Source: a phage
Sequence record: NC_100372.1
Reading direction: 5' to 3' (one strand)
Length of the DNA stretch: 64,000 bases
Made by a program: the position numbers and the translations under genes
Shown here: positions 1 through 36,568 of the stretch, piece after piece
Position numbering within the stretch: position 1 is the stretch's first letter
Layout of the letters: each line of letters opens with the position of its first letter
The notes under the pieces: model-generated
What the model was told of the DNA's origin: nothing
The model's input: the letters and a program-made list of their open reading frames with translations, nothing else
The model's database searches: none

Positions 1-806
1 AGGTCTGCACCACAAGCTTTCAGCATCTCTGCCATAATGCTTGCTGGTGCTTCATCCATGTCGAACTCGCCATTAATGGTGTAACGGCGCTCACTGGTTC
101 CGTCCGCGTTTTTTACAGCCTCGTCGCATATGTTGGCAGCTTCCTTGAAGGACTCCCAGTTGATGGTTTCGTCAGGACATTTAAGGTACGTTCTTAGGTA
201 GTCCAGAATCACCAGGGCAGCGTTATTGGTATGCACCTCTTTACTGATACGAGGATCATAACATTTTTTACCAACCTTGACGAGTGTAACGTTTGGCAAC
301 CCAAAAGGAAACTTGTTAGGGTCAAACTTGAAGCTGGCACGTAGCCAACTGATCCCTCTACCTATCATGTCCGGTGTCCACGAAGGGCAGTGTGTGCCCA
401 TGAAAGGATCAGAGGTTTTTCTGTCGTTATGTAGCTCCCAAGATACCAAATCTCCATATGAGGAAATAGGATTACCGTCGATAAGTATATCTTCTATACC
501 TTCCAAGGGATGATTGGCAAGAACAATAGCACAATGAAGGGTTCTGTCCCTGTCCTGCTCCAAAAACGCAAGCAATCCAGATGTGCGTGTCTTCCCATAC
601 ACTACAGAGCAAGGTGCAGCAGAAGATCTGAGAAGCTTTTGTCTATCTTGCTGACTTCTGTAAGATTTGTTACCTTCGAAAATCTTATCCAAGGTTCTGG
701 TGGTAACAGTGTTCAGGCTGTCAGCCAGAGCTGCCTTGGATGCGTTCCAGTCATAGCTCGAAGATCTTGCAGAAGCAACGATGTTATCAATCATTGCAAT
801 TGGCAT
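1..806 (-). CDS. tail tip / host-specificity-like structural protein, partial (C-terminus lies beyond window start)
   Basis: Minus-strand frame open from ATG at 806-804 to position 1 with no stop (over 265 codons); start overlaps stop of upstream gene (ATTAATG); follows an NlpC/P60 K-like gene as in siphovirus tip modules. Not in the ORF track because no stop lies in the window. Confidence 0.35.
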   Translation of the reverse strand, partial: MPIAMIDNIVASARSSSYDWNASKAALADSLNTVTTRTLDKIFEGNKSYRSQQDRQKLLRSSAAPCSVVYGKTRTSGLLAFLEQDRDRTLHCAIVLANHPLEGIEDILIDGNPISSYGDLVSWELHNDRKTSDPFMGTHCPSWTPDMIGRGISWLRASFKFDPNKFPFGLPNVTLVKVGKKCYDPRISKEVHTNNAALVILDYLRTYLKCPDETINWESFKEAANICDEAVKNADGTSERRYTINGEFDMDEAPASIMAEMLKACGAD

Positions 807-1243
807 TAATACCTCCAGACATCAACAACGATAGAATCTTTCATGTCGAACATAAAGATCCCTTTATCACCTTTCGCCCAAATCTGATTGTTCCAGAACA
901 CACCAGCGGTGAGCCCGTTCAGACCTTCGAAAATAACAATATCGCCACGCTGAACCTGTTTAGGAGTATCCAGTCGAGTCAAAAAGAGATCAAAAATAGT
1001 AGGCAGATGTGTGGTTTTGAAACGAAGCATGCACCATCTCTTGCTTTCCAACTCTGTTTTATACGTTCCTTCAAAGTTAGAAAGAAAATCTGTTCCGTAT
1101 TGGGCATCAACACACTTAGCCGCAAAAGTGCAGCAATCGTGGAATCCCCATTCAAACGGGACGGTGGCTTCTTCGTCAAACACTTTCCACAATCTTTCTT
1201 GCCAGTCCACTAAACGAGGGTGTGTGCTCATTAAACCTCCCAA
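806..1243 (-). CDS. NlpC/P60-family tail protein (lambda gpK C-terminal-domain-like)
   Basis: 145 aa; motif FEWGFHDCCTF resembles the Cys-containing NlpC/P60 motif of lambda K (FEHGVTDCYTLF), with downstream QRGDIVIF / TAGVF similarity; position in tail module. Confidence 0.45.
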   Translation of the reverse strand: MGGLMSTHPRLVDWQERLWKVFDEEATVPFEWGFHDCCTFAAKCVDAQYGTDFLSNFEGTYKTELESKRWCMLRFKTTHLPTIFDLFLTRLDTPKQVQRGDIVIFEGLNGLTAGVFWNNQIWAKGDKGIFMFDMKDSIVVDVWRY

Positions 1244-1797
1244 ATGATCGGGCGGCTTGCCACCTGATCCACATATTTAAAAAATCTGTCATTATCGTTT
1301 CTTGAGCTATGGCTCTCCTCTGTGTATCGATAAGGAAAACCTCTTAACCAGCTGTTGAAGATGGAAGATATGGATATGGACAAAGCACTATTCTCCCCTG
1401 TCTGAATAGCCATGTCTGTTATAAGGCCGTCAAACAAGCCATTGGTTGTAACAGGTAAACCATTCTCCATGGCTGTGATATACAACGTGGCACGACAACC
1501 CGAATACTCTGTCTTCAGCAGATCACCTACATACTTGGGATCAAACCCGTTCAATGTTGCTACCACAGACCCAAAGTTGGTGGCATCTTTCTCAGATACA
1601 GCAGTCAATGTTGCTGATCCCCCTATCCCTATAAAATGTTGCCCCTCAATCACCACAACACCAGTTCCTGAGCACACCCTAACAGTCCCTGTTGGTAGCT
1701 CTAGCTTTGCAGCAATTAAGATCTCAACACTATCAAGCTCCAGCTTTTCAAGAAATAAATTATCTAATGGCGCTCTAATCATCTTAGAAATCCTCAA
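1231..1797 (-). CDS. hypothetical tail-associated protein
   Basis: 188-aa ORF, overlaps neighbours by a few codons within the minus-strand late operon. Confidence 0.3.
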   Translation of the reverse strand: MRISKMIRAPLDNLFLEKLELDSVEILIAAKLELPTGTVRVCSGTGVVVIEGQHFIGIGGSATLTAVSEKDATNFGSVVATLNGFDPKYVGDLLKTEYSGCRATLYITAMENGLPVTTNGLFDGLITDMAIQTGENSALSISISSIFNSWLRGFPYRYTEESHSSRNDNDRFFKYVDQVASRPIIWEV

Positions 1798-2374
1798 AGA
1801 AGTTGATAACTATATTATCACCTTTTTGCATAGCATCGACTTTTTGCTTAATTTTATAAATATCCCTGATATGAAACCTACCCTTTGGGGATTGAGTTAT
1901 TATCTTCATAGTGTCCCCTGCGGCAATAGGTTTTCTAAGTCTTGGAGATATGCTTATAACAGCAGACCCAACACCATCGCTGCGCACTGGAGCTGTTACC
2001 ACTTTCAATTCATCGTTAACAGATATTTTATCCCCAGCTCTAGCTATGTCTCTGTTTGGCTCCCATCCGACCGTCTTCAAAAAATCGTCGTTACCAGTAG
2101 GCCCAAGGGCGATTGGCTCATTAGCTGTTACTGAGTGACCGTACGTTTTAATAAGAAAAATGTTCCCATCTTTATACACCTGATCAACAAAGCTCTTAAG
2201 CTCTAGCAGCTGTGACTCGCTGATATTGGAAACCGTCAAAGTGCCTTTCCAGTTAGGTGTGGCATAGGTCACTTTTTGCGTTTTACCTGTAAACGGACTT
2301 TTAAACGTAACAATATCTGCCAGCAGCTCCAATCTGATGTCTGGAAGGTATCTAGGCCTTTCCCATAAAAACAT
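1784..2374 (-). CDS. hypothetical tail-associated protein
   Basis: 196-aa ORF directly downstream of the long fibre gene and its terminator. Confidence 0.3.
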   Translation of the reverse strand: MFLWERPRYLPDIRLELLADIVTFKSPFTGKTQKVTYATPNWKGTLTVSNISESQLLELKSFVDQVYKDGNIFLIKTYGHSVTANEPIALGPTGNDDFLKTVGWEPNRDIARAGDKISVNDELKVVTAPVRSDGVGSAVISISPRLRKPIAAGDTMKIITQSPKGRFHIRDIYKIKQKVDAMQKGDNIVINFFEDF

Positions 2375-2446: not shown

Positions 2447-2466
2447 GCCCCCGCCGAAGCGAGGGC
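2447..2466 (-). terminator. rho-independent terminator after long tail fibre gene
   Basis: Minus strand reads GCCCTCGC-TTCG-GCGGGGGC followed by TTTTTGTTTG, immediately after the fibre stop at 2474. Confidence 0.5.
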
Positions 2467-2473
2467 AAAACAG

Positions 2474-5400
2474 TTACTTCAGTTTCTCTTGCAACCCAGT
2501 AACAACCTCTGTCAATTTTTTAACCTGCTCCTCAAGGGAGGTTATTTTATCATCCTGTTCCCTACAAACTTGGACAAGCAAGCCTGTCACAGCTGCGTAG
2601 TCAACATTATAGAATCTTTCCTCGGTCATCAGAGGAATACCATCTTGAGTAGAACCAGGAACCTCTTTCCTTTTCACGAAAGAACCAACCGCTTCAGGTA
2701 ATGCTTCCATAACCTCTTGAGCAATTACCCCCGCGTGAGGCATACCATTCTCTTTTAGAGTGTAGGTATAGCCCTTCATCTTACGGATAGCTTCCAGCGC
2801 GTTAGGAATAACCTCTATGTTATCCTTCAGGTCTCTATCAGAGCTCTGGCTCACAGTGGTGCACTCAACTACACCGTTGACAGCAAAATATCTTGACTTA
2901 GCCTCGTCTGCCCTAGCCCCGCAGTGGAATACCCAACTAGCAGAAGAAGAGTTGTCGTTTATCTGAAACTCAAGAACGTTCTTCCTGTCTGCGCCGTTAC
3001 CCCAATAGTACATTCTACCTGAATTGGCGGGTAAGTTATCGGCGTTACTAGAAAGACTGTTAGCACCGACATGAATTTCCAGTTGATTACTGGTTTCACC
3101 AAAAGTGTAATTAGGTCTTAACTGGATGCCCTTACCAGCATCGTGTCTCCATTCTTCCCAAGTAAAGACATCGCCAACGTAGTTACCAGCACGAGTATAT
3201 CTGTCACCAAAATAGGTGATATATTCCTGCACACAACCTTGAGGTCTGTTAGCTGTGTTTTTGTAAACAAGCAGTGTACCAGCGTACGGAGCAGGGTAGT
3301 GGCGATCTATTACAAGTGCGTCAGCGTTTGAACCTTGGTGATAGAAACCTTCACGGCTACCATCATAGGCATTAAGGTCTTCTGTCCCCAGACCTTGACC
3401 ACGGTGCTGAATAACTTTGTTCCACGCCCTGTGGTTACCACCCTCAATAGATCTGGTGTATAACTGATCAAGGCGACCAGCCATTTGGAAAGCATAGTTT
3501 CCAGAAAACGCCACAGACAGTCCACCAACAACCATCGAACCTTCTGGCCCGTTGACGTTGCCAGCCATTATTTTTGACGGGTTATTAGGCCCGAACTGGT
3601 TGTTCCAGTCTCCACCAGTATGACATACAAAACCACCAGGGGCTGAGAAAGTACCATCTTTGTTGAAGTTGTAGAATCTGTGAGCGGAACCTACAACATC
3701 ACGAACAATAACTTGACCAGCTTCTGGAGTAGACCTGAACTCTGCTTGGCCTTGAAGGCCAGCACCATTACCGCATTTAGAGGTAAACGTGCCGTTAGTT
3801 AGATCCTCTGTTCCGTCAGATGCACACTGGAACCCTGCATTAGAGAATAACGCCTTTCTAGGACTGCCGTAGCACAAATAGTCAAGACCGTCTGCCCACA
3901 GCTCGACTTTAGGCATGTTCGTTTTGCTCATCACTGCATAGCGTTCAGGAGTCCCCAGGTAGTGCCACATAGTTCCACCACCAGTGTAGAAACCTGATGT
4001 TCCTTTGAACTCAACCAGAGGTCTGGTGTTTGTTACATCATCACCTTTGATTGCAAGACTCAAATCTGCAGATTCCAGAGGAGCACAGAACTTGACACCA
4101 TCTTGGTTACCTGTCACGTTGCCTACTTGCCAATCAGCCTCCCTGGTTGACACTTCTATTACAGTAGCGCCAGCATATACTGTAACAGGGAATGCACGTG
4201 CCTCTACATAGAATGCAACATACTCCTGCTTACCTCTGGTTGGAGATACACATCCGAGGATTGCTCTCTCGTTTTGGTAGAAATTAATAACCCCTTGGAA
4301 AGAATCACCTCTGTCCGTCCAGCCACCAGTTCTGTAGTGACACTGTAGTGTAGCACAGTTCATTGGGTCGCCGCCAGAAGAAGATCTGGTGACAATGGTT
4401 AAATCTGTCCCGATAGTTGCTGCAAAGTTGGGGTCAGTTCTGACGATAATAGGATAATACTTACCGTCCTGCATAGCTGCAGTTCTGGGCAGGTTTACAT
4501 ATGGTCTAGCGCCTGCTGCCAGAGGGATTCTGAATTGTGCTTGAGCATCCCCTACAGTCCTGGCACTGGTACCACCACAAGCTATCGGTAGTGGTTCCCA
4601 TTTGGCTTTCCGGTTGTTATAAACACCCCACTCAAGCGTTCCTTCACCTTGCTCGTCCATACCGCCATCCCAGATGACCATCTTGGCGGCTTTCTTAGAT
4701 CCCCAGAAACCTCTTTCTGCCCTTGAACTGCGGATCCATTCTCCAAGTCCCCAGTTTGCCAGCTGACCGTTCAGATCACCAACCTGCATATATTTAGGAC
4801 AATCTAAGACCCCATCCTCGCGGAAGCCTAAATATCTATGAGTTTCAGATCCTTTTGCGCCTTTGTGCAGGTGGATTGTCAACCAAGCCTTATTGTCGTT
4901 TCTTACCTCAGAGTAGATCCTATACCCATGCTCAAGGACACCGTCAGCGCTGTATTTGTCCCCGTTAACAATACCTGATGCCGACTTAACATCAGCCGAG
5001 CTTTGAGACAGGTAAAGGTGCCCGAAGGTAGGAGAATTCCTAGACCCAAGACCGATGTGCGATCTAAAGGTCTCATCGTTACGAGGTCTGACCATCGGCT
5101 GCCATGCAGTCCACTGGTTTGTGTTGGCCTGATAGGTTCTCAAATACCAAACATCTACGTTAGAGAATGGGTAGTATTCCTGACGACAGCCTGTACCGCC
5201 GTTAGCATTGTTCTGCCAGACAATCAAGTGACCAGCACCAGAACCTGCAGGGTAACCATTTGCCTCAGTTGCATAAGCAGTCATCGGCTGGTAGTATATA
5301 CCATCCTGATTACCAGTCAAGTTATTGATATTAAAATTTGACTCAAGGGCTGCACGTTGCTTATAGAAAGCCCCTAAATTAATGCGTGCACCTGCGGCAT

Positions 5401-6283
5401 CTCTGGCCCCTGTACCGCCCTGCTCTATAGCAAGAGGTTGCCACGAGGCTGTTTGTTGGTTCCACATACCCCAACGGCCTGTTGCATCAAGCTGCAAGTA
5501 CCCTGCCGTGTTTAAATCATCTCCGGCACGGATAACTGTTCTTGTTGGGTTGTTTGCCTCCAGGCGTTTAAATTCGTCACGAAGTGCTATTCTTTTTGTT
5601 GTTGCTACACCGTTGGCTACTGCAATGGTATACATGGCTCCGGAGGTAGCGCCACGGAAAATGCCATCAACAGTTGTAGTATCACGACGAGATACCACAC
5701 CGTTCAGAAATTTTTCACCCGCCGCTTCAGAAGGGTAGTTAGTAGTTCTTCCCTCTTCAATAACTGCAGGACCAACAAAGTTGACAAGGTGAATAACATC
5801 GCCTACAGTATGCACTGTGCCAAAATCTACCCGCTGTGCAAGTGCTTTAGCATCGTTGGCTGTCTGAACAGTAACATCCATTACATCCTGGACAGACTGC
5901 CCTTCGGCTGTCATGATCATAGATGCGCCAATGGTAGACTCCAGCTCCTCCCTTAAGGACGGATCTGTATATACCATCCACGCAGCGTCAGTAATCCCAC
6001 CGTCAGAATATGGTGAAGACAGTGCAGGGACAGTGTGTGGAAATTCGCCTTTCCAACGCAGGTATAGATCTTCCTCTTCGAAGTAGGCAAAATCCATTGG
6101 GCCGTTTAACTTACCACCTTCCTTAAAGGAGATTACATGAGAAACAGTCCCATCCACATGGACAACATCGCCAATTTTCACACGACGGGTCAGGTCTGGT
6201 TGTTGAACAACCAGGTAATCATCCTCTGTCACTGCGGTAGTGGCAGGAAGAGATTCAATTCTGACAACTTTAATATCAGCCAT
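2474..6283 (-). CDS. long tail fibre protein with C-terminal intramolecular chaperone (peptidase S74-like) domain
   Basis: 1269 aa; C-terminus DRDLKDNIEVIPNALEAIRKMKGYTYTLKENGMPHAGVIAQEVMEALPEAVG matches the auto-cleaving chaperone domain of endosialidase and T5 L-shaped-fibre type proteins; Gly/Thr/Asn-rich repetitive body; N-terminus paralogous to ORF 8918..9586. Confidence 0.8.
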   Translation of the reverse strand: MADIKVVRIESLPATTAVTEDDYLVVQQPDLTRRVKIGDVVHVDGTVSHVISFKEGGKLNGPMDFAYFEEEDLYLRWKGEFPHTVPALSSPYSDGGITDAAWMVYTDPSLREELESTIGASMIMTAEGQSVQDVMDVTVQTANDAKALAQRVDFGTVHTVGDVIHLVNFVGPAVIEEGRTTNYPSEAAGEKFLNGVVSRRDTTTVDGIFRGATSGAMYTIAVANGVATTKRIALRDEFKRLEANNPTRTVIRAGDDLNTAGYLQLDATGRWGMWNQQTASWQPLAIEQGGTGARDAAGARINLGAFYKQRAALESNFNINNLTGNQDGIYYQPMTAYATEANGYPAGSGAGHLIVWQNNANGGTGCRQEYYPFSNVDVWYLRTYQANTNQWTAWQPMVRPRNDETFRSHIGLGSRNSPTFGHLYLSQSSADVKSASGIVNGDKYSADGVLEHGYRIYSEVRNDNKAWLTIHLHKGAKGSETHRYLGFREDGVLDCPKYMQVGDLNGQLANWGLGEWIRSSRAERGFWGSKKAAKMVIWDGGMDEQGEGTLEWGVYNNRKAKWEPLPIACGGTSARTVGDAQAQFRIPLAAGARPYVNLPRTAAMQDGKYYPIIVRTDPNFAATIGTDLTIVTRSSSGGDPMNCATLQCHYRTGGWTDRGDSFQGVINFYQNERAILGCVSPTRGKQEYVAFYVEARAFPVTVYAGATVIEVSTREADWQVGNVTGNQDGVKFCAPLESADLSLAIKGDDVTNTRPLVEFKGTSGFYTGGGTMWHYLGTPERYAVMSKTNMPKVELWADGLDYLCYGSPRKALFSNAGFQCASDGTEDLTNGTFTSKCGNGAGLQGQAEFRSTPEAGQVIVRDVVGSAHRFYNFNKDGTFSAPGGFVCHTGGDWNNQFGPNNPSKIMAGNVNGPEGSMVVGGLSVAFSGNYAFQMAGRLDQLYTRSIEGGNHRAWNKVIQHRGQGLGTEDLNAYDGSREGFYHQGSNADALVIDRHYPAPYAGTLLVYKNTANRPQGCVQEYITYFGDRYTRAGNYVGDVFTWEEWRHDAGKGIQLRPNYTFGETSNQLEIHVGANSLSSNADNLPANSGRMYYWGNGADRKNVLEFQINDNSSSASWVFHCGARADEAKSRYFAVNGVVECTTVSQSSDRDLKDNIEVIPNALEAIRKMKGYTYTLKENGMPHAGVIAQEVMEALPEAVGSFVKRKEVPGSTQDGIPLMTEERFYNVDYAAVTGLLVQVCREQDDKITSLEEQVKKLTEVVTGLQEKLK

Positions 6284-6318
6284 TCTTTCTCCTGAAAGGG
6301 GGCAAACAGCCCCCTATG

Positions 6319-8916
6319 TTAAAGGTACAATCCACGGTATTGAGCATAAAGGCCAAGACCGCGAAGGATTTCGCCAGAGTGATAGCCTACCGGATCAGAA
6401 ACTGCCCAGCAGCCATTTAAAACATTATCCCCATTAATAAAGTGGTGCTTTTGCAGTAGCTTCATACAGGCTTCTACAACAATATCTATTTGAGGTATTG
6501 TTTCTGAATACCCGCACAGACCTAGCCAGCAGCAACCTGCAAGCCATTCACCTACCACCCACATCCTATCTCCTCTATCTTGATAAGAGTATCCACCAGA
6601 GGTGTTAAAGTCTGTAGGCAAATTTCCTGAATGGGATGACTGGAATCTGTTGAGGAACCATGCCCATTTCTGGCAGAACAGGAACAGTCTTTCATCAACA
6701 GGCTCTTTATGTTTCTTGAGCTCATATATTGTGCGGCACGCAGCAACAAAAGATCTTGACTGGAGCTTAGAGTTATCTACCATCTCCCACCAACCAGTCA
6801 ACCCTTCATTACCTCTTTGCCATACATAACGTGAGGCAACTGGACCCTCTGTCTTAAATGTATTGTTATACCAGACTTGAGAGTCATACAGAAAGCCTAT
6901 TGTATTTGACAATCTATGGCGGTCTATGTTTTCTGCACCCATGCAGTAGACTGCTGGGTATTGCATACCAGGACAGGGCCAACTTGGCCTTTCCTCTAAG
7001 AGATAATTTTCCTTATCTATCACCTTTCCGGCAGGGAACACACCTGGGGTGTGCCTGTAGGCACCTTGCTTGTAGTTTCTGACATAGCAATCACCAACCT
7101 TGGCGGTTGATTCTGTCTTGCTTGCCATCCATACGCTAAACCAGATTAGATAAGCATCCCTATCTGCAACATAAAATTGCGGCAGTGTGTTGACGCAATA
7201 CAGATCGAACAAGCCATTACCTATCTGCCTGTCGCTCAGACTGAAATCTACAGAGGTAATTCCTTTAGGGTTAGCAAAGAAAGGTTTAATCTCATCTTCT
7301 GTGTGATGAGGTTGTGTTGGGTCTAGTTTAAAATCACCTAGGGTAAGAGTTTCTGTTACCCATTGCCCGTTAGTGGCATATAGATCAGCATACCATAACC
7401 AACGGTCTTTGTCAAGAAATTTGACCCTTACCATCTCATCATCTGATCGATAAGTCACTGAGTTTAAAGAAATCTCTCTTCCAAAATTGAAAGTTACTTT
7501 GCCTCTTACTATATTGCAACGGGTGAAGTTGTCGGAGTGGTTGTAAATGTCGGTACCATACTGCATACTGACACTCGCGCCACCGCTTACGGTAATGTTT
7601 TCCTCTTTTGGCAAGAGATACGGGTTACCGTCTTTACCAACCACCTCCACGAAATCGGTGACCTTGGCAACTGTCTCTGTTACCTCTGCCCCTCCAAAAG
7701 GGACCCCTATCCTATACTGTTTTTTGTTATTGTTGCCATCATTAAGGATGAAATGTGGCTGGAACAGGACCCCTTCTCCTCCAAAATTCATAACAATTTC
7801 GGCATCTCTGCCTATTTTGTATGTAGTCCCTTTTTGGATTATTTCGCAAGGCTGGCGTGCGTTCATTCTAAAATTGATATATCCGTCACTATCCCTACTC
7901 ATGACAGGTACTGTTCCTGCAACTAGACAAGCGCCATCTGTGAACGGGGCCTTAATCAACGTGGTCTTTCTGAACAGCTTGTCGTAGGCATTTATATCAC
8001 TAAAATTAAGCAACTTATTGTAAGACTGCTTAAACGCGGTGTAATACTTTTCCTCACCTGTCAGGGTGTAGAGTTGATAACAAGCGTCACACCACATCTC
8101 TTCCCCATCTAACTCTGGGGCTTGATTGTCTGCAACCACGTTTATAGGATTTACAATTACAGGGGATCCAGCAGGTATCACCGATCCGCCCTGCTCTTGA
8201 GGCAATCTCACACAATAGGTAACCTTGTGGTTGCCTGTAACACCCTTATCTTGCAGTTGGATTGTGCCGAACTCTGCAGACGTATGACCACTGTCGGCTA
8301 TGCTACCGTTGGCCCAATAGCGGTTACCATCCCATGCTATATACCACTCAACCCACCAACTTAATCCGGAAGTTGTCCAATTAGGATTAGCATCTGTGCC
8401 GCCGTAAACATCAGAGTCTACAGTGTTTCTTCCTAAAACACCGTTATACGCCTGAAAAGCCTTGTCCAAGTATTCTCCCCATGTCGGGGATCCTGCTGGG
8501 ATTTTTCCTCTACCTTTGTTAAAAGACACAACCACATCTTTAAACCCACCATGTGATGGAACTCCATCTGTGGATAACGGGTAGTGGGACAATCTTTGCA
8601 TTTTACTTTCTACTGCATATACTCCCAGAAGATGACTGTTGTAGGCTTCCCAAGCCTCTTTGGCCCTGTCCAGATAAAAATCGCTTTTTGATGCCCTGTA
8701 TGCCTCAATGTATCCCAGAATCAACACAGCTTGGGACTCATGCATTGCCCAATCATTATTTATCTTACTTCCTGACCAACCTGACGCTATAAGTCCATCC
8801 TGGTTTACCAGTTTGTTCTGTGTAGGGAGATTGGTAATACCTGTGTTGTTATCGAGGCACTTCCTGTGCCCCTCGATCATCTGAAATACGTTATCAATGT
8901 TGTGTTGAATACGCAT
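6319..8916 (-). CDS. putative tailspike / enzymatic receptor-binding protein (possible depolymerase)
   Basis: 865 aa, Trp/Tyr-rich, enzyme-like N-terminal region (GWSGSKINNDWAMHESQAVLILGYIEAYRASKSDFYLDRAKEAWEAY); sits between the short fibre/adaptor and the long fibre. Confidence 0.4.
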   Translation of the reverse strand: MRIQHNIDNVFQMIEGHRKCLDNNTGITNLPTQNKLVNQDGLIASGWSGSKINNDWAMHESQAVLILGYIEAYRASKSDFYLDRAKEAWEAYNSHLLGVYAVESKMQRLSHYPLSTDGVPSHGGFKDVVVSFNKGRGKIPAGSPTWGEYLDKAFQAYNGVLGRNTVDSDVYGGTDANPNWTTSGLSWWVEWYIAWDGNRYWANGSIADSGHTSAEFGTIQLQDKGVTGNHKVTYCVRLPQEQGGSVIPAGSPVIVNPINVVADNQAPELDGEEMWCDACYQLYTLTGEEKYYTAFKQSYNKLLNFSDINAYDKLFRKTTLIKAPFTDGACLVAGTVPVMSRDSDGYINFRMNARQPCEIIQKGTTYKIGRDAEIVMNFGGEGVLFQPHFILNDGNNNKKQYRIGVPFGGAEVTETVAKVTDFVEVVGKDGNPYLLPKEENITVSGGASVSMQYGTDIYNHSDNFTRCNIVRGKVTFNFGREISLNSVTYRSDDEMVRVKFLDKDRWLWYADLYATNGQWVTETLTLGDFKLDPTQPHHTEDEIKPFFANPKGITSVDFSLSDRQIGNGLFDLYCVNTLPQFYVADRDAYLIWFSVWMASKTESTAKVGDCYVRNYKQGAYRHTPGVFPAGKVIDKENYLLEERPSWPCPGMQYPAVYCMGAENIDRHRLSNTIGFLYDSQVWYNNTFKTEGPVASRYVWQRGNEGLTGWWEMVDNSKLQSRSFVAACRTIYELKKHKEPVDERLFLFCQKWAWFLNRFQSSHSGNLPTDFNTSGGYSYQDRGDRMWVVGEWLAGCCWLGLCGYSETIPQIDIVVEACMKLLQKHHFINGDNVLNGCWAVSDPVGYHSGEILRGLGLYAQYRGLYL

Positions 8917-8917
8917 C

Positions 8918-9586
8918 TTAGATAGCTCCTGCGATGATCAGTGCCCCGTACCAAGTTAGTCCATTATCATATGTTTCCAACTTGAAAATGTCTGTTGCAC
9001 CAGCTGTAAATGTTAGGATAGGATCTCTTCCGTAGGCCCATTTAACATTGTCAGGCCAATAAACTTTGTTACCACCAGAGGTCTGCGTTATGCATACAGT
9101 TATAGTTCTTGCCACTCCGTCGAGCCCTTCTGTTTGATTTTCAAAAGAGATTGTGGTGTTTGAAGTGAGCCGAACTTTAAACGTGTCTGCAACGTCAAGA
9201 TCCATGTCAAGTTGACCACCAATAGAGCCGTAATCAACTATCCTACCTGAAGAAGTTGCAGCAAGCTCTCCAAAAACAGACCATGCTTTTGCAGACACAC
9301 CTCCGGCACCCTCTACAGTGGAATCTGGGAGGATTATTTTAGGATAATCTCCATTCCATGTGTAGTAGCGCTTAGTTTCCGGATCATAAGCAAAATCCTT
9401 CTTGCTCTTAAGATAACCGCCCTCTGTGAAATAAACTATTTTAGTAATGCTAAGATCATTGACAACATCATCAATCTTAGCCTTTCTTGTCCCGTCAGTC
9501 TGGTTGACAACCAAGAAGTCATCACTCAAGACTGTTTCTGCATCTTCAAGATCTGGGATTGGTATTGTAGGATAAGCTACAGCCAT
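8918..9586 (-). CDS. short tail fibre / adaptor protein sharing the N-terminal anchor domain of the long fibre
   Basis: 222 aa; N-terminus (IPDLEDAETVLSDDFLVVNQTDGTRKAKIDDVVND...FTEGGYLKSKKDFAYDPE) aligns by eye with the long-fibre N-terminus (LPATTAVTEDDYLVVQQPDLTRRVKIGDVVHVD...FKEGGKLNGPMDFAYFEE). Confidence 0.5.
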   Translation of the reverse strand: MAVAYPTIPIPDLEDAETVLSDDFLVVNQTDGTRKAKIDDVVNDLSITKIVYFTEGGYLKSKKDFAYDPETKRYYTWNGDYPKIILPDSTVEGAGGVSAKAWSVFGELAATSSGRIVDYGSIGGQLDMDLDVADTFKVRLTSNTTISFENQTEGLDGVARTITVCITQTSGGNKVYWPDNVKWAYGRDPILTFTAGATDIFKLETYDNGLTWYGALIIAGAI

Positions 9587-9595
9587 GATTTCTCC

Positions 9596-10312
9596 TTAGT
9601 TAACATCAATAGCACGACCAGACTGGTTGGCAATAGCCTCATCATTAGAGGTAGCAATAACACCAGAATATTCGCGCTCATCTGGAGCAAGCGTCCAGGT
9701 ATTGCGGTTAATGGTTTGTTCTGCATCAGTCATCAGCAGATCTTTATCCTGAGTCAACAGAGAACCTACAGGGATCGGGTTTTCCATCTCAGGACCAGCA
9801 TACTGGTTCCACCACGTAGCATCTCCAGTTCTAGGCAATCTGAAGTTGATCAGGTAGTACAGTTTATTAGCCCACTTAATCCAACCTTCATCATCACAAA
9901 GAGAGGTTGCCCCGTCATCAGGCTGTGGGTAGGTAAACTGATCAAGACCTACGAAAGCCAGCCTTACAATCTCGTTCTCCTTGGTAACAACCTCAAAGAA
10001 CGCTTGGTATGTTCTAGATCTTCGATCCATAGTAGACTGGAAGTTTATGATGTTTAGCACATCTGGCTCTTGTCTTGCCACTTCCATAATCTTGTTATCA
10101 AGAACAGTCTTCATGACCTTCTTACTGAGAAAGTCCATATAAGGGAAGCCAAACAACTCATCAAAGTACCAGCTCCCCTTCCATGTATTAAACCTCATCC
10201 ACAGGCGCTGGCGCAGACTTACTTGGTTTGAATCTATCAACTCAAGACCTTTGTCTATCGCCAAATCACCTGTCTGTGGGTCCATCAATATATCACTATA
10301 AAGCGTAGCCAT
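9596..10312 (-). CDS. baseplate wedge protein with gp25/GpW-like N-terminal domain
   Basis: 238 aa; N-terminus LYSDILMDP...NTWKGSWYFDELFGFPY resembles the T4 gp25 LYSDI / GSRPFDPEFG motifs. Confidence 0.45.
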   Translation of the reverse strand: MATLYSDILMDPQTGDLAIDKGLELIDSNQVSLRQRLWMRFNTWKGSWYFDELFGFPYMDFLSKKVMKTVLDNKIMEVARQEPDVLNIINFQSTMDRRSRTYQAFFEVVTKENEIVRLAFVGLDQFTYPQPDDGATSLCDDEGWIKWANKLYYLINFRLPRTGDATWWNQYAGPEMENPIPVGSLLTQDKDLLMTDAEQTINRNTWTLAPDEREYSGVIATSNDEAIANQSGRAIDVN

Positions 10313-31654: not shown

Positions 31655-32160
31655 AGCAGACTCCTCTTCAAGTTATAGAAAAAACTCACTGTATCGCTTT
31701 GTAACGAGCTTTTCTATCAAACTGGTGCGATTGCCTTACTTGGTATAGTTTATATAGCTGTGGAGCGATTTAGGGGCCTTCTTGTCAGTTTCCACACATA
31801 AACTTTATCCGAACTCGCGCGGGAGGCTCTCAACCGACTCCTTCCGGCGCTGGCAAGCTTTCGTCGGTGGTCCACATTAGTGCTCGGCCTTTGGCCTGTG
31901 CTATCGCTTCGCTCCCACACATGTTAACAGTCCTGCATGTATGCACTTCTGTTATTGTGTGCACTATGGAGGCCCGGCATCTCGCCCCTCGTAGGCGAGT
32001 GCCAATGAAGGGCCGACACTACCCATAATAAGTAATAAATTTAAAACATGGTACTTAGGATCTAGTATATTCTACATAAGTTAAGTATATGTACTTTAGT
32101 ACCATAAGTACTAGATCTTTTATTTTTTATTATTTAGTTATTTTAGTTATATTCTTTATG

Positions 32161-32243
32161 TGTCCGTATCACGGACAGTTAGTGTCCGTATTACGGGCAA
32201 ATGTGTCCGCGTGACGGACAGTAGTGTCCGTATCACGGACAGT
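32161..32243. repeat. array of four phased palindromic sites (consensus GTGTCCGTATCACGGACAG)
   Basis: Copies start at 32161, 32183, 32204, 32225 (21-22 bp phasing); copies 1 and 4 identical, 2 and 3 degenerate; each has 7-bp inverted arms TGTCCGT / ACGGACA. Confidence 0.65.
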
Positions 32244-32316
32244 TACTAACCTCTGTTCCATAGTGAACATAAAACATACAAATCCTTATAGTACAGATGT
32301 TTAAGTTTTTACTGGT

Positions 32317-32667
32317 CTAACCAGTTGTTGACATTCGAATAACTTCTTCTGGTGGCAAAACTTTGGAAAATGTGCATCTTTTACCTCTCCCTTGTGTGGA
32401 TATTTCAACCACTCCTGCACATTCTAAAGTTTTAACGCACGCTGCTGCTTTTGTTTTCTTTATCCCAACATCTGCTGCAATTTTCCTTGTGCTGGGTGTG
32501 AAGCGTAAATTTTCTCCAAGCTTATACCAGTTGTGCAGGTAGCAGTATACGATCTTGTCATATAAGTCAAGAACAACAACCTCCCCAGTTGTGTCATTCA
32601 AAACTTTTGACATAGACAGTATTTCAAGGGGGACTTTAAGATATAGCAGCTTATCCCCATCTTTCAT
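32317..32667 (-). CDS. putative DNA-binding protein (helix-turn-helix / winged-helix-like)
   Basis: 116 aa; segment STRKIAADVGIKKTKAAACVKTLECAGVVEISTQGRGKRCTF resembles an HTH recognition helix plus wing; the palindromic array lies just 3' of this gene. Confidence 0.35.
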   Translation of the reverse strand: MKDGDKLLYLKVPLEILSMSKVLNDTTGEVVVLDLYDKIVYCYLHNWYKLGENLRFTPSTRKIAADVGIKKTKAAACVKTLECAGVVEISTQGRGKRCTFSKVLPPEEVIRMSTTG

Positions 32668-32714
32668 ATCTCCTGATTCTCCTTGTGTGGCAATTTTCTT
32701 TAAAATAGCAGGGA

Positions 32715-33269
32715 TTACTCCCCGCTGTCAATAGCAAGACTCATTGCAATACGGTATGCCTCTTCTAATGGTAAGAGTCTCCCCCACACATCCCAACCGA
32801 CATCAAACTGCCTGCCAAACAACTGCTGTGTGGTTCCGTGAGCATGACCGAACAGTTGGACTGATCCGTGAGGCTTTCTGTTCCACTTTGCAAACTGGTA
32901 ATGGCTCATACAGATCAAATTCTTGTTGTGGCGAAGCTCGTAATAATCTACAACCTCATGACCGAACTCTTTCATAATTCTGACAGTCGTCCTTGTGTCA
33001 TGGTTACCACGAACAAGAATAATATGTCCGTTCAACATATTTAGAACATCTGGAAGCAATTTGTTGATATTCTTATCATTAGTGCACGCAATATCCCCCA
33101 AGTGAAACACAGTGTCTGCAGGTGACACAACAGAGTTCCACTTGGTGATGATTCCCGCATTCATACTGTCAAGATTGTGATCATACTGAGATCTGTGTTT
33201 TTGACATGAGTCGAACTCCATTACCCGCTGGTGGAGAAAGTGTGTGTCGCTTGTTACAAAGTATTTCAT
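32715..33269 (-). CDS. calcineurin-like metallophosphoesterase (candidate RNA 3'-phosphatase)
   Basis: Start set at ATG 33269 with RBS GAGGAA; motifs SDTHF (DxH), GDIA (GDxx), VRGNHD (GNHD), GHAHG (GHxH). Confidence 0.7.
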   Translation of the reverse strand: MKYFVTSDTHFLHQRVMEFDSCQKHRSQYDHNLDSMNAGIITKWNSVVSPADTVFHLGDIACTNDKNINKLLPDVLNMLNGHIILVRGNHDTRTTVRIMKEFGHEVVDYYELRHNKNLICMSHYQFAKWNRKPHGSVQLFGHAHGTTQQLFGRQFDVGWDVWGRLLPLEEAYRIAMSLAIDSGE

Positions 33270-33276
33270 ACATTCC

Positions 33277-33687
33277 TCATTTAAGTTTAATGCAGTTTTT
33301 AAGCTGGCGTTCCATACGATCCACAACCCTGTCTGGAACATCATGAATGCTTTTATTACCATGGCGGTTTTCAACCACGATCACGGTATAACTATATCCA
33401 TGACTGATCGCCATGTCAATATATTCTTGCACATATTTTTCTTTTGTAAACGTATTACTTACCACGATACGGTCGTAGCCCATACGCATCATATCTTCTA
33501 CGTTATCTTTGCACCATTTTGCTGCAAGTGTTACTTTACTTGCATCCCAATTGTAATTGCCGTCATCGTCGTACCAGAACATATCGTTCTCAAAATGTGG
33601 ATACAGACCTTCTAAAGATAGCGCATTTGCCAGTGTTGATTTGCCAGACCCTGGTAGACCACGCACGATATATAGCATTTTAGACAT
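33277..33687 (-). CDS. P-loop kinase, polynucleotide 5'-kinase-like
   Basis: Start set at ATG 33687 with RBS GGAGAG; Walker A GLPGSGKST at N-terminus; 136 aa; 7 nt upstream of the phosphoesterase gene. Confidence 0.55.
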   Translation of the reverse strand: MSKMLYIVRGLPGSGKSTLANALSLEGLYPHFENDMFWYDDDGNYNWDASKVTLAAKWCKDNVEDMMRMGYDRIVVSNTFTKEKYVQEYIDMAISHGYSYTVIVVENRHGNKSIHDVPDRVVDRMERQLKNCIKLK

Positions 33688-33715
33688 AGTAACTCTCCGT
33701 TTTAATTTTAATGAT

Positions 33716-33744
33716 AGTATACCTAACTGTTTTGTTAATTTCAA
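33716..33744 (-). promoter_or_regulatory. sigma70-like promoter for kinase/phosphoesterase operon
   Basis: Minus strand TTGAAA (33744-33739), 17-nt spacer, TATACT (33721-33716); a plus-strand TTGACA at 33748-33753 suggests a divergent promoter for the ligase operon, but its -10 is weak. Confidence 0.45.
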
Positions 33745-33787
33745 GTGTTGACACCAAGTTATTTGTGTGGCAGGATAAAGGGACAAA

Positions 33788-34723
33788 ATGACAAATGAGG
33801 AATGTATAATGAAGTATTTTAATGCAGACAACCTAGTTGACAAAGGTCTTGTAACCAGCAGATATTACCCGGATCTTGGGTTAAAGATCTATAAATATGC
33901 CAGAAAAGTATTCTACAACAATTTATGGCATTTGTCTCCTCGTTTGCTGGAGTGCCGAGGCATTGTTGTCGGTAATGAAGGAAATGTTGTGGCATGGCCC
34001 TTCACAAAAGTGTTTAACTTGGGAGAAAATTCCACCAACCTGCCTGACAATAAACTTGTGACGGCGGTAGAGAAAAAGAACGGATTCCTTGGTGTGGTAT
34101 CATCTCATAAAGGTGAACTATTGTTCTCAACAACCGGGTCTCTTGATTCTCCATATTGTAACCTCGCAAAGGAAACAATCCAGGAGCAATGTGGTAATTT
34201 AGATCTTATCAAGAGGGTTATGGGCCATGAAAACATGACATTCATGTTTGAAATTTGTCACCCTTCAGATCCGCATATTGTTCAGGAAGATCATGGCGCA
34301 TATTTGATAGGTTGCAGATATAATGATTCTGGAATAATGCTACCAGAAGCAGCTTTAGATGGGATTGCCAAATACCTTGGTGCAAAACGTCCTCACACTG
34401 TGCGTGAAATTCCGTTCAGCTATGCAAAAGAATTAGCTGCAGAAACAAGAGGTGAAGGGTATATGATTCGTAAGCCTTACTACCCTTATGATCTGCAGCT
34501 GAAGATCAAGTCTCCATACTATTTGGCACGGAAGGCCGTAATGAGGGGTAAAGCTTGGAAGATTTGGGATGATGATATCTTTAAACGTGTTGACGAAGAG
34601 TTTTACGGCATGGTAAACTTCATTCGTAGAAACTACACAGAAGATGTGTGGAATTGCCTCCTGGAGCAGGAACGACGTGAGATACTTGACTGCTATTTCC
34701 ACAACGAGGACTATATGCAATGA
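33788..34723 (+). CDS. RNA ligase, Rnl2-like nucleotidyltransferase
   Basis: 311 aa; motif I EKKNGF (KxNG, cf. T4 Rnl2 KxHG), motif IV EGYMIRKP (cf. EGYVLKP), motif V LKIKS; alternative start at ATG 33809 with RBS GAGGAA. Confidence 0.6.
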   Translation: MTNEECIMKYFNADNLVDKGLVTSRYYPDLGLKIYKYARKVFYNNLWHLSPRLLECRGIVVGNEGNVVAWPFTKVFNLGENSTNLPDNKLVTAVEKKNGFLGVVSSHKGELLFSTTGSLDSPYCNLAKETIQEQCGNLDLIKRVMGHENMTFMFEICHPSDPHIVQEDHGAYLIGCRYNDSGIMLPEAALDGIAKYLGAKRPHTVREIPFSYAKELAAETRGEGYMIRKPYYPYDLQLKIKSPYYLARKAVMRGKAWKIWDDDIFKRVDEEFYGMVNFIRRNYTEDVWNCLLEQERREILDCYFHNEDYMQ

Positions 34724-35070
34724 AGAAGTTGATTGTGTGGCTGGATGACTTGAGAGATCCGTCAAATTATGGGCTCCCAGATGCTCTTTGGCTAAAGAAT
34801 TCCTCTGAGTTTATGGATTTTATTAACGATAAGGGAAAGCTCTACAGGCGCGTTTCTGAGTGGCACATGGACAACGACCTTGGAGAGGTATTTGAAGGGT
34901 ACGATTGCCTATCTATGCTGGAGGAAAAATTTGTATTTGGTAAGCCTCCTGTAGTTGACAACGTGAAGATTTTCGTGCATACTTCTAACCCATCAGCTGC
35001 TCGTAAATTCATGCTTGCTGCTGACTCGTTTAAAAAGTTTGGAATAGAGATTAAACAAAACATCTACTGA
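34720..35070 (+). CDS. hypothetical protein translationally coupled between RNA ligase and sirtuin
   Basis: 116 aa; start overlaps ligase stop (ATGA); no motif recognised. Confidence 0.4.
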   Translation: MKKLIVWLDDLRDPSNYGLPDALWLKNSSEFMDFINDKGKLYRRVSEWHMDNDLGEVFEGYDCLSMLEEKFVFGKPPVVDNVKIFVHTSNPSAARKFMLAADSFKKFGIEIKQNIY

Positions 35071-35078
35071 GGACACTT

Positions 35079-35840
35079 ATGCGACGACTGATCATTATCT
35101 CCGGTGCTGGTTTGAGCGCTGAATCTGGTATCCCAACTTTCCGATCTGGTGGCACTGCAATGTGGGAGAATTTCAGCATCGATGAGGTGTGTAACATCCA
35201 CACCTTTGCCAAGAACTATTATAAGGTTCATGACTTTTACAATGCACGGCGTGTAGCTCTGGGCAGTGTTGATCCTAACCTTGCACATCTCCGGATCGCT
35301 GAATGGTATTCCCGCTGGTCTGGTCGCGTGATCAACCTGACAACCAATGTAGATGATTTGCTGGAGCGTGCTGGTGTAAAACATGAAGATATTTTACATG
35401 TCCACGGATATTTGCCAGAAATAGTCTACGAGGATGATGAAGGGAGTAACGTCATTAAAGACATTGGATACTCTGAGGTAGATGCAAGCAAGTATACTTG
35501 GGTTAAGCCTAATGTCGTGTTCTTCGGAGAAGTAGCTCCAAAGTATACAGACATGTATGACCTGTTGACTTCTCTGACGAGCAATGATATGGTTATCCTT
35601 GTAGGGTGCTCCAACACAGTTATCAATTTTAACTGGGAGCTATTCCCTGCCTGTAATAAGGGGACCAAACTGCTGATCGTTAACAAATACGACTCACAGC
35701 ATTTAGGGGAGAATGGCATTTCACGTAGTGACATTTACCAGTATGAGGATCGCGGCATCCCAGTTTGGTTTAACGGGGCTGTTGACGCTTTCTCTGATAA
35801 AACATTCATTGACATCGTAGAAAACTTTATGGAACTGTAA
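35079..35840 (+). CDS. Sir2-family NAD-dependent deacylase / ADP-ribosyltransferase homologue lacking the zinc-binding cysteines
   Basis: 253 aa; GAGLSAESGIPTFRSGG NAD-binding motif, FYNARR, PNLAHL, TTNVDDLLERAG, catalytic HG (HVHGYL), VVFFGE, all paralleling E. coli CobB; no CxxC pairs in the expected zinc-ribbon region. Confidence 0.8.
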   Translation: MRRLIIISGAGLSAESGIPTFRSGGTAMWENFSIDEVCNIHTFAKNYYKVHDFYNARRVALGSVDPNLAHLRIAEWYSRWSGRVINLTTNVDDLLERAGVKHEDILHVHGYLPEIVYEDDEGSNVIKDIGYSEVDASKYTWVKPNVVFFGEVAPKYTDMYDLLTSLTSNDMVILVGCSNTVINFNWELFPACNKGTKLLIVNKYDSQHLGENGISRSDIYQYEDRGIPVWFNGAVDAFSDKTFIDIVENFMEL

Positions 35841-35854
35841 GCGGAGGCCTTTTA

Positions 35855-36568
35855 ATGCTGAATACTAAACTGATTGACAACTTGGAAAAACTGTCTCAGC
35901 CTGAAAACTACCTTTGGTCTGCCAACTGGGTGGAAAATTGGAACCGTGTAGCAGCTAAAGTGAAAAAATCATACACACCATTCGAACTTCAGCTGAGTTT
36001 CATTGAGGAAGAGTTCAATGAAGTTTTGGAAGAGTTGGAGAAAGGTGATGGTGGGGATCATCTCCTAAAAGAGGCCTGCGATCTTCACGTTGTCACAAGT
36101 TATGCCGCTTATCTTGTTAACGATAACCATGAAAAGTGGTCAAACCTGTTTGATAATCCGCGAGGTCTTAAGTTTAAGATCGGTGAATTTTATGATACAC
36201 TGATCGCTGCGAAAAATACCTCTAAGCAAAGAGCGTCTGCTTACCGCTTAGCAGAGTTGTCGACAGCTTTGCTGTTCCAGCTTCGCGGTGATGTGTGCGG
36301 GATGATGCGGAAGGTTCTAAAATCTAATGACAGCAAGTTTGCACGCGTCAACCATCTGCGGTATTCACACGGTGCCAGTGCAGATATGCCTGCTGAACAA
36401 CTTATCGAGTTGGAGATTAAAGATCTTGAGCGACGCTTTGATGGTCGCTATGAAGGTTTTGTTGCTAAAGAAGAATTCTACAACGGAAATAAAGTTATCA
36501 TATTCCTCGACAGTAAAGGTAAGATTATGAAGCCTTCAAGCTTCAAGGATGTAACAGAATATATTTAA
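35855..36568 (+). CDS. putative MazG-like nucleotide pyrophosphohydrolase
   Basis: 237 aa; acidic helix motif EEEFNEVLEELEKGD...LLKEACDLHVV resembles the EExxE/D metal-binding motif of MazG/HisE proteins. Confidence 0.35.
   Translation: MLNTKLIDNLEKLSQPENYLWSANWVENWNRVAAKVKKSYTPFELQLSFIEEEFNEVLEELEKGDGGDHLLKEACDLHVVTSYAAYLVNDNHEKWSNLFDNPRGLKFKIGEFYDTLIAAKNTSKQRASAYRLAELSTALLFQLRGDVCGMMRKVLKSNDSKFARVNHLRYSHGASADMPAEQLIELEIKDLERRFDGRYEGFVAKEEFYNGNKVIIFLDSKGKIMKPSSFKDVTEYI

Follow-up and report, generated by a model that had tools for sequence, protein, structure and literature searches.

A shared N-terminal attachment module and a putative two-chain spike in the tail locus of an rV5-like phage

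Results

The tail locus of the analysed phage

The DNA analysed in this study is a stretch of 64,000 nucleotides (nt) from a phage (sequence record NC_100372.1), referred to below as the window. We focused on three of its tail genes, encoding proteins of 222, 865 and 1269 amino acids (aa), whose open reading frames (ORFs) were confirmed at positions 8918-9586, 6319-8916 and 2474-6283, respectively. An earlier annotation made from the sequence alone (the original prediction) had interpreted the 222-aa and 1269-aa proteins as two receptor-binding proteins with a paralogous N-terminal anchor, and the 865-aa protein as a third, enzymatic spike lying between them. The window region shares 97.7% identity with Escherichia phage EI-SP-GF, and 90-93% with over 100 genomes of Vequintavirus (rV5-like phages), the BASEL phage EduardKellenberger/Bas59 among them; the phage is a Vequintavirus, i.e. 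an rV5-like Escherichia coli myophage. Homologue searches made with a word index were shallow.

All genes of the tail locus are located on the minus strand, in the order tape measure, tube initiator, plug, hub, spike, sheath-initiator-like protein, 222-aa protein, 865-aa protein and 1269-aa fibre, followed by a set (Dit-like / tail protein / DUF6950 / gpJ-like) that continues beyond the start of the window. Synteny and similarity identify the 222-aa, 865-aa and 1269-aa proteins as orthologues of gp43, gp42 and gp41 of phage rV5, while the counterparts of the first two in phage phi92 are gp140 and gp141. Mass spectrometry of rV5 virions performed by Kropinski et al. detected gp41, gp42 and gp43 (PMC3606486); the absence of the 865-aa protein from virions, which would have spoken against the original prediction, is not what was found for its orthologue gp42. 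Directly upstream of the 222-aa gene lies the gene of a sheath-initiator-like baseplate protein (238 aa; positions 9596-10312, minus strand), recognized by its synteny with phi92 gp139, its homologue, which has been assigned as the sheath initiator (PMC13450770). In L021 and L023, which, together with L022, are metagenomic rV5-like relatives of the phage, the corresponding gene is recorded with PF10934 (Sheath_initiator).

A common N-terminal module

BLASTP comparison of the 222-aa and 1269-aa proteins produced a single significant alignment, between residues 8-105 of the former and 7-105 of the latter (38% identity, 55% positives, one gap, E=3e-18). Both proteins also exceed the curated gathering threshold (25 bits) of the Pfam family PF18668 (Tail_spike_N, the TSP1/Gp66 N-terminal domain), with scores of 40.4 bits for residues 51-104 of the 222-aa protein and 42.0 bits for residues 46-103 of the 1269-aa protein. 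The N-terminal similarity noticed previously is therefore real, although the shared stretch, at first placed within about 90 residues, extends slightly further, to approximately residue 105. In tblastn searches exactly two copies of the module were found in the window, and likewise in the complete tail loci of related phages.

Alignment with these relatives divides the module into (a) a leader of approximately 48 residues with the motif ...SDLP...DYLVVDQ.D.TRK..., and (b) the PF18668 beta-domain. In the 222-aa protein, the leader (delimited by the alignment and by a leader hidden Markov model, HMM) spans residues 1-48 (positions 9443-9586, minus strand) and the Tail_spike_N domain residues 51-104 (9275-9436, minus strand). 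The paralogous module of the fibre, defined by BLASTP, Pfam, tblastn, alignment and the HMM, comprises residues 1-105 (5969-6283, minus strand). Sequence matches of the PF18668 part of the 222-aa protein among solved structures include CBA120 TSP1/3/4 and G7C gp63.1. This domain sits N-terminally, ahead of a variable distal body, and occupies an equal position in proteins carrying Beta_helix, SASA and BNR_4 domains. When the leader HMM was built without phi92 gp143, it still found the N-terminus of this protein at E=1.7e-9 (next-best ORF at E=4.7 among 1,419 ORFs), and it found leader-bearing proteins of L021-L023 with E-values of 1e-17 to 1e-25. phi92 gp140 retains only part (a) ahead of its C-terminal domain; the PF18668 part is absent.

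Distal parts exchanged among related phages

Related genomes encode two to three leader-bearing proteins each, and the distal parts of these proteins are freely exchanged. Two proteins of the Seunavirus EspYZU15 bear the complete (a)+(b) module, namely its small protein and a spike of 712 aa for which degradation of colanic acid is annotated. The sheath-initiator gene of L021 is followed by a 690-aa spike consisting of (a), (b) and Beta_helix parts, and then by an 850-aa spike with (a), (b) and Phage_tail_beta parts, while that of L023 is followed by a 518-aa protein with the (a)+(b) module, a 938-aa protein adding SASA and a 1012-aa protein adding BNR_4. In phi92 the leader is common to gp140 and the endosialidase gp143. 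The bodies found behind the leader thus comprise a beta-helix, a SASA esterase, a BNR sialidase-like protein, the spike annotated as colanic-acid degrading and the phi92 endosialidase. The occurrence of the same leader on two to three proteins with exchanged distal parts supports the earlier proposal that distal domains are exchanged on a common attachment module. Moreover, the slot immediately after the sheath-initiator gene is occupied by a leader-bearing protein in every relative whose upstream gene is visible.

The sheath-initiator-like protein of the window has a C-terminal extension of approximately 60 aa (positions 9596-9775), and extensions in the range of 30-60 aa also occur in phi92 and Seunavirus; in an alignment of four genomes only, phage phiTE has neither this extension nor leader-bearing proteins in the corresponding slot. 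On the basis of these four genomes, the extension is a candidate docking element for the module. In phiTE the C-terminus of the sheath initiator adds a helix to the N-terminal bundle of a fibre (PMC11972413). We also observed in L021 (5718-9686) and L022 (2699-5008), beside the leader-bearing spikes, a protein that over its first ~60 residues is closely similar to the N-terminal end of CBA120 TSP1, so attachment modules appear to be common to Ackermannviridae and rV5-like phages.

A conserved pair of genes

The gene of the 865-aa protein starts 1 nt past the stop codon of the 222-aa gene (8918-9586, minus strand), whose product combines the N-terminal module with a C-terminal beta-sandwich (the C-domain; residues ~110-222, positions 8921-9259, minus strand; AlphaFold2 predicted local distance difference test score, pLDDT, ~95). 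In all ten lineages examined, four of which were picked solely through C-domain matches, a full-length homologue of the 865-aa protein is encoded directly behind a gene ending with the C-domain, with junctions of -8 to +12 nt. The three most distant of these homologues (24-28% identity; from a Burkholderia prophage and two metagenomic phages) are each directly preceded by a protein ending with the C-domain (E-values of 1e-30, 3e-30 and 2e-20), while the N-terminal parts of the three small proteins, of 153, 244 and 473 aa, are unrelated, one of them containing SPRY. Conversely, the phages picked through the C-domain (Erwinia phiEa104, Salmonella PMBT28, Cronobacter vB_CsaP_Ss1 and Salmonella birk) all encode a full-length homologue of the 865-aa protein (995-1,417 bits) that starts at, or overlaps, the stop codon of the C-domain gene.

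Among 50,697 phage genomes, the 865-aa family was detected in 524 records and the C-domain in 514. Their counts run in parallel in Escherichia (242/239), Salmonella (101/98), Vibrio (62/58), Erwinia (33/33), Campylobacter (23/23), Cronobacter (12/12), Aeromonas (7/7) and Klebsiella (6/6), and the two are adjacent wherever the coordinates of both are listed; for this set, adjacency was judged from totals and sampled coordinates. About 20 of the records concerned with Campylobacter phages (MG065635-MG065662, host Campylobacter jejuni) are 90-98% identical in this region to E. coli Vequintavirus or phi92-like genomes, and their host labels look doubtful.

Scanning of the loci revealed no N-terminal module in the 865-aa protein or in any homologue of it. 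Across all lineages, alignments of the large protein begin within residues 1-14, its N-terminal helix is conserved, and no lineage carries a specific N-terminal extension. Within the pair, only the N-terminal part of the small protein is therefore specific to a lineage, and the simplest reading is that the small protein acts as anchor and connector, with the large one as its cargo. The C-domain itself is very common (3,191 clusters at E<=0.001) and is C-terminal in 131 of 147 carriers; its nearly invariant residues are identical across phages of very different hosts. An exclusive link of this domain to the gene pair was considered and rejected, since multiple and terminal copies occur in loci lacking a homologue of the 865-aa protein. 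An apparent additional copy in Seunavirus ORF40 proved to be an artefact, as sequences containing only the N-terminal module had contaminated the alignment columns. Similarity of the C-domain to T4 gp10-like or XD domains was not found at the sequence level (hhalign probability <1% for CBA120 TSP1-4 against the C-domain profile), and neither Foldseek nor hhalign confirmed a gp10-like relationship.

The 865-aa protein

The 865-aa protein (6319-8916, minus strand), a member of the rV5 gp42 and phi92 gp141 family without its own attachment module, is probably a glycoside-hydrolase-like protein of the (alpha/alpha)6 type, and the predicted enzymatic body of a split spike. Its structural model (pLDDT 68) shows an (alpha/alpha)6 barrel split by two large, beta-rich inserts at residues ~100-260 and 330-613. 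The original prediction had described this protein as Trp-rich and enzymatic-looking; its Trp content is 3.1%. Assignment to a glycoside hydrolase (GH) family from sequence was dropped, as Pfam, NCBIfam and a single-sequence search of the PDB all remained without a match. A profile of the protein matched epimerases at E=0.003, over 34 residues only. The designation "glycosidase" has already been given to phi92 gp141 (PMC5380687).

The central beta-domain of the 865-aa protein (residues ~430-580, positions ~7170-7630) is a separate mobile module, which recurs (E=6e-41) in the adjoining 502-aa tail protein gp071 of Erwinia phage phiEa104 (L014 3003-4511) and is also present in PHROG 23426.

The 1269-aa long tail fibre

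The rV5 gp41 orthologue (2474-6283, minus strand) was compared by a windowed identity profile with its equivalents in Bas59, WM, FV3 and JEP1. Its first ~500 residues are 94-100% conserved, while residues ~500-1150 are mosaic among vequintaviruses, with identity falling to 42-56% near residues 950-1150. From this profile, the mosaic distal part (residues ~500-1147, positions 2843-4786, minus strand) is the probable receptor-specifying region. Such mosaicism fits the strong allelic variation stated for the fibre gene in the BASEL study. The 222-aa and 865-aa proteins are 96-100% conserved among vequintaviruses, and are therefore not the variable determinants of host range. The proposed role of the locus as a host-range determinant would thus apply to the distal half of the fibre, and not to the other two proteins.

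The fibre ends with a Peptidase_S74 intramolecular chaperone domain (PF13884; residues 1148-1269, positions 2477-2842, minus strand), as had been suspected. The Pfam profile matches residues 1148-1199 (E=1.2e-16, 61.1 bits, cut-off 22), and matches of the C-terminus in the PDB are the chaperone domains of S16 gp37 and MYRF. The profile begins exactly at S1148-DRDL-K1153, which has the spacing of a Ser-x4-Lys dyad, and the annotated cleavage site of phi92 gp143, T756|S757-DGTL-K762, contains the same motif. The agreement with gp143 lies in this motif and in the Pfam profile only, as BLASTP of the fibre C-terminus against the gp143 chaperone domain yielded nothing at E<1e-3. Self-cleavage of the fibre before Ser1148 is predicted by analogy with these homologues. 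A cryo-electron microscopy study of Bas54 using RBPseg placed the S74-bearing class of vequintavirus fibres in baseplate-wedge and distal-fibre maps that lack density for the peptidase domain (PMC12143355), and the S74 domain is absent from LL12 gp41 (PMC7229145).

The motif W.PL....GGT(G/S)AR occurs twice in the fibre, at residues 289-310 and 570-590 (positions ~5350-5420 and ~4510-4580), and its second copy is situated near the start of the mosaic region. Similar motifs of tail fibres have been proposed as module junctions or recombination points, and the motif could have this role here.

The fibre gene appears to end a transcription unit. It is directly followed by a strong intrinsic-terminator-like hairpin (positions 2447-2466, minus strand) with an 8-bp stem containing 7 GC pairs and a T-run, and a terminator is annotated in the Murica record, too. 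Beyond it, within positions 2375-2473, a promoter-like TTAACT...TAAAAT sequence was noticed by eye ahead of the next gene. Another GC-rich hairpin, GGGGGCTGTTTGCCCCC, followed by TTT only, is located between the 865-aa and fibre genes (6284-6318).

Other features of the window

Past the long fibre, positions 1-2374 (minus strand) encode a set of tail-tip proteins in siphovirus style within a myophage. Its members are a Dit-like protein of 196 aa (PHROG 1302), a tail protein of 188 aa, a DUF6950 protein of 145 aa that BASEL annotates as "cell wall hydrolase", and a large fibre of which the window start leaves only the N-terminus. The rV5 orthologue of the latter, gp37, carries COG4733, and its N-terminus looks lambda gpJ-like by eye. 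The GC skew of the window changes sign at ~32000-36000, being negative below ~34 kb and positive above, which fits a change of transcription direction.

Discussion

The picture that emerges, and that we consider likely on balance, is that the window carries part of a multivalent adsorption apparatus of the rV5-like type, whose appendages would be attached by the shared N-terminal module: a split spike formed by the 222-aa and 865-aa proteins, and the 1269-aa fibre. The module would fix these appendages, as trimers, at equivalent docking sites on the periphery of the baseplate or on the fibre network. The first appendage would be a probable two-chain spike, in which the 222-aa protein provides the anchor and a beta-sandwich connector, and the translationally coupled 865-aa protein, devoid of an anchor, provides an enzymatic body acting on a conserved surface glycan. 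The second would be the fibre, with a conserved proximal half bearing a mosaic, receptor-specifying distal half; its S74 chaperone would drive folding of the trimer and then, judging from homologues, be cut off before Ser1148.

The evidence for the gene pair and the adaptor comes from comparative genomics throughout. On this basis, the 222-aa protein probably serves as the anchor of the 865-aa protein, and the pair is most simply read as a two-chain counterpart of the one-chain spike that L021 has in the corresponding slot. Two roles assigned by the original prediction would have to be revised: the 222-aa protein is probably not a second receptor-binding protein, as it forms a conserved two-gene unit with the 865-aa protein and supplies the anchor, and the 865-aa protein, having no anchor of its own, is probably not a third independent spike.

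Several points weigh against a split spike with an enzymatic body. The mutual binding of the two proteins is something we infer. The structural model of the 865-aa protein is of only moderate confidence, no Pfam or NCBIfam family was matched at E<=0.1, and no CAZy-type membership was found by sequence. Five acidic residues (E60, D270, D678, E732 and E849) are invariant and located at or near barrel helices, but no correspondence to known catalytic positions was obtained. No fusion of the C-domain with the large protein was present among 166 collected proteins, and a mirror-tree test of the two revealed modest co-divergence (r=0.49, Mantel p=0.03). phi92 gp141 and its Seunavirus homologue are 78% identical, whereas identity between the C-domains of their partners is only 46%. 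In some loci the C-domain is present although there is no homologue of the 865-aa protein: L018 has three tandem copies in the final gene behind a gpJ-like tail tip, L019 has five copies within a 2,036-aa protein, and phiTE_215 has the domain at its tip. The domain is, in general, a module of distal tips, a pattern that would also fit a glycan-binding knob.

As regards the 78%-identical proteins (L005 4712-7588 and L004 12669-15458), the 865-aa protein of the window is ~35% identical to both. The difference between 78% and 46% could stem from recombination with a breakpoint between the two genes, or from a constraint that differs between them.

Of the other explanations, the one that survives best, though we regard it as unlikely, is that the 222-aa protein is an independent, stubby receptor-binding fibre with the beta-sandwich as its distal glycan-binding knob. 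The 865-aa enzyme would then be mounted by other means, e.g. by its conserved N-terminal helix or by the C-terminal extension of the sheath initiator, and the two genes would co-occur because of a joint need to bind and to hydrolyse the same conserved glycan. However, the 865-aa family starts at the same helix in Kolesnikvirus, Rosemountvirus, the vB_CsaP-named phage Ss1 and the Burkholderia prophage, so the large protein has no lineage-specific part that could fit such different tails; within the pair this element is confined to the N-terminal part of the small protein. In addition, the sameness of the invariant C-domain residues across hosts fits a constant partner better than host-specific receptors.

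A clearly less probable arrangement is one in which the two N-terminal modules compete for a single docking site, giving mixed virions, or in which the fibre docks onto the 222-aa/865-aa unit to form a branched, CBA120-like structure. Against it stand L021 and L023, in which two to three proteins bear the leader although the C-domain is missing, so that docking of the leader on this domain cannot be the general rule; a gp10-like similarity was unconfirmed by Foldseek and hhalign. Finally, we find it hardly credible that the small protein serves mainly as a chaperone or assembly factor of the 865-aa protein, and not as a functional virion anchor. The genes of fibres and of their chaperones, too, are typically coupled tightly in translation and co-occur almost perfectly, but gp43 is among the proteins detected in rV5 virions, and an N-terminal module of the attachment type, which otherwise heads full-length tailspikes, would be superfluous for a pure chaperone.

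Returning to the split spike, we tentatively suggest, with somewhat less than even confidence, that the pair constitutes a portable, plug-in enzymatic appendage with a universal connector, and that gp140-gp141 of phi92 fills the density of fibre II or of the fibre I arm. Exchange of the N-terminal part of the small protein alone would then mount the same enzyme on very different tails. In the 2026 paper on the phi92 structure, the fibre I arm and fibre II are unassigned and gp141 is unmentioned; according to PMC13450770, no assignment of fibre II is possible. For rV5-like and phi92-like phages, it has also been called unclear which of the genes form which fibre (PMC8594841).

Phages of these two types are common, and are broad-host-range candidates for therapy. 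The assembly rules emerging from this analysis are that the leader marks appendages encoded after the sheath initiator, that their distal parts are exchangeable, and that a conserved enzyme is probably carried on a small adaptor. These rules suggest specific complexes to be fitted into existing maps, as well as a principle of retargeting, namely the swapping of parts past the ~105-residue module or of the N-terminal part of the adaptor.

The proteins themselves, the PF18668 and S74 domains, the glycosidase prediction and the modularity of N-terminal anchors are already known, and the presence of an N-terminal anchor on two tail proteins is, taken alone, an ordinary instance of well-known tail-fibre modularity. 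The literature examined, which did not include the description of phi92 by Schwarzer et al. (2012), contained no mention of a leader common to the gp43/gp140 family and a variable spike (including phi92 gp143), and the phi92 literature within the same scope no discussion of a gp140-gp141 partnership. Neither the slot rule after the sheath-initiator gene nor the widespread pairing of a small protein with an (alpha/alpha)6 protein was found in the literature examined. The gene pair may be regarded as a moderately new variant of adaptor-mounted tail enzymes.

The closest known system is that of phi92 (Stephanstirmvirinae). Its gp140 shares the leader with the window proteins and is 41% identical to the 222-aa protein in the C-domain, gp141 is 34.5% identical to the 865-aa protein over its full length, and gp143 has the common leader and, as in the 1269-aa fibre, an S74 chaperone at its end. 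phi92 differs in that gp140 lacks the PF18668 part and gp143 is an endosialidase rather than a long fibre.

PF18668 was defined on TSP1 of CBA120 (Ackermannviridae), whose TSP1-4 are serially encoded spikes with common N-terminal modules and varied enzymatic bodies. The D1 domain of TSP1/TSP3 is, however, unlike the ~48-residue leader, and no T4 gp10-like XD domains are detectable by sequence in the window proteins. Furthermore, the CBA120 enzymes are beta-helices, whereas the window enzyme is an (alpha/alpha)6 protein on a separate chain.

The proposed holding of an anchor-less enzyme by another tail protein is shared with the gp37-type adaptors of K1-5, K1E and SP6 and with G7C gp66-gp63.1 (see also PMC13450770). 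In comparison with these adaptor-mounted tailspikes, the putative window adaptor is small and has a dedicated C-terminal beta-sandwich, the pair is portable across very different phage groups, and binding between the two proteins is presumed. In T4 and S16, too, a fibre (gp37) pairs its C-terminal domain with the product of the next gene downstream (gp38), but gp38 is a small adhesin, not a hydrolase-like protein of ~100 kDa, and there is no sequence relationship. As for the enzymatic body, the 865-aa protein has ~10% identity to GH8, GH48, GH76, GH88, GH105 and AGE-type epimerases.

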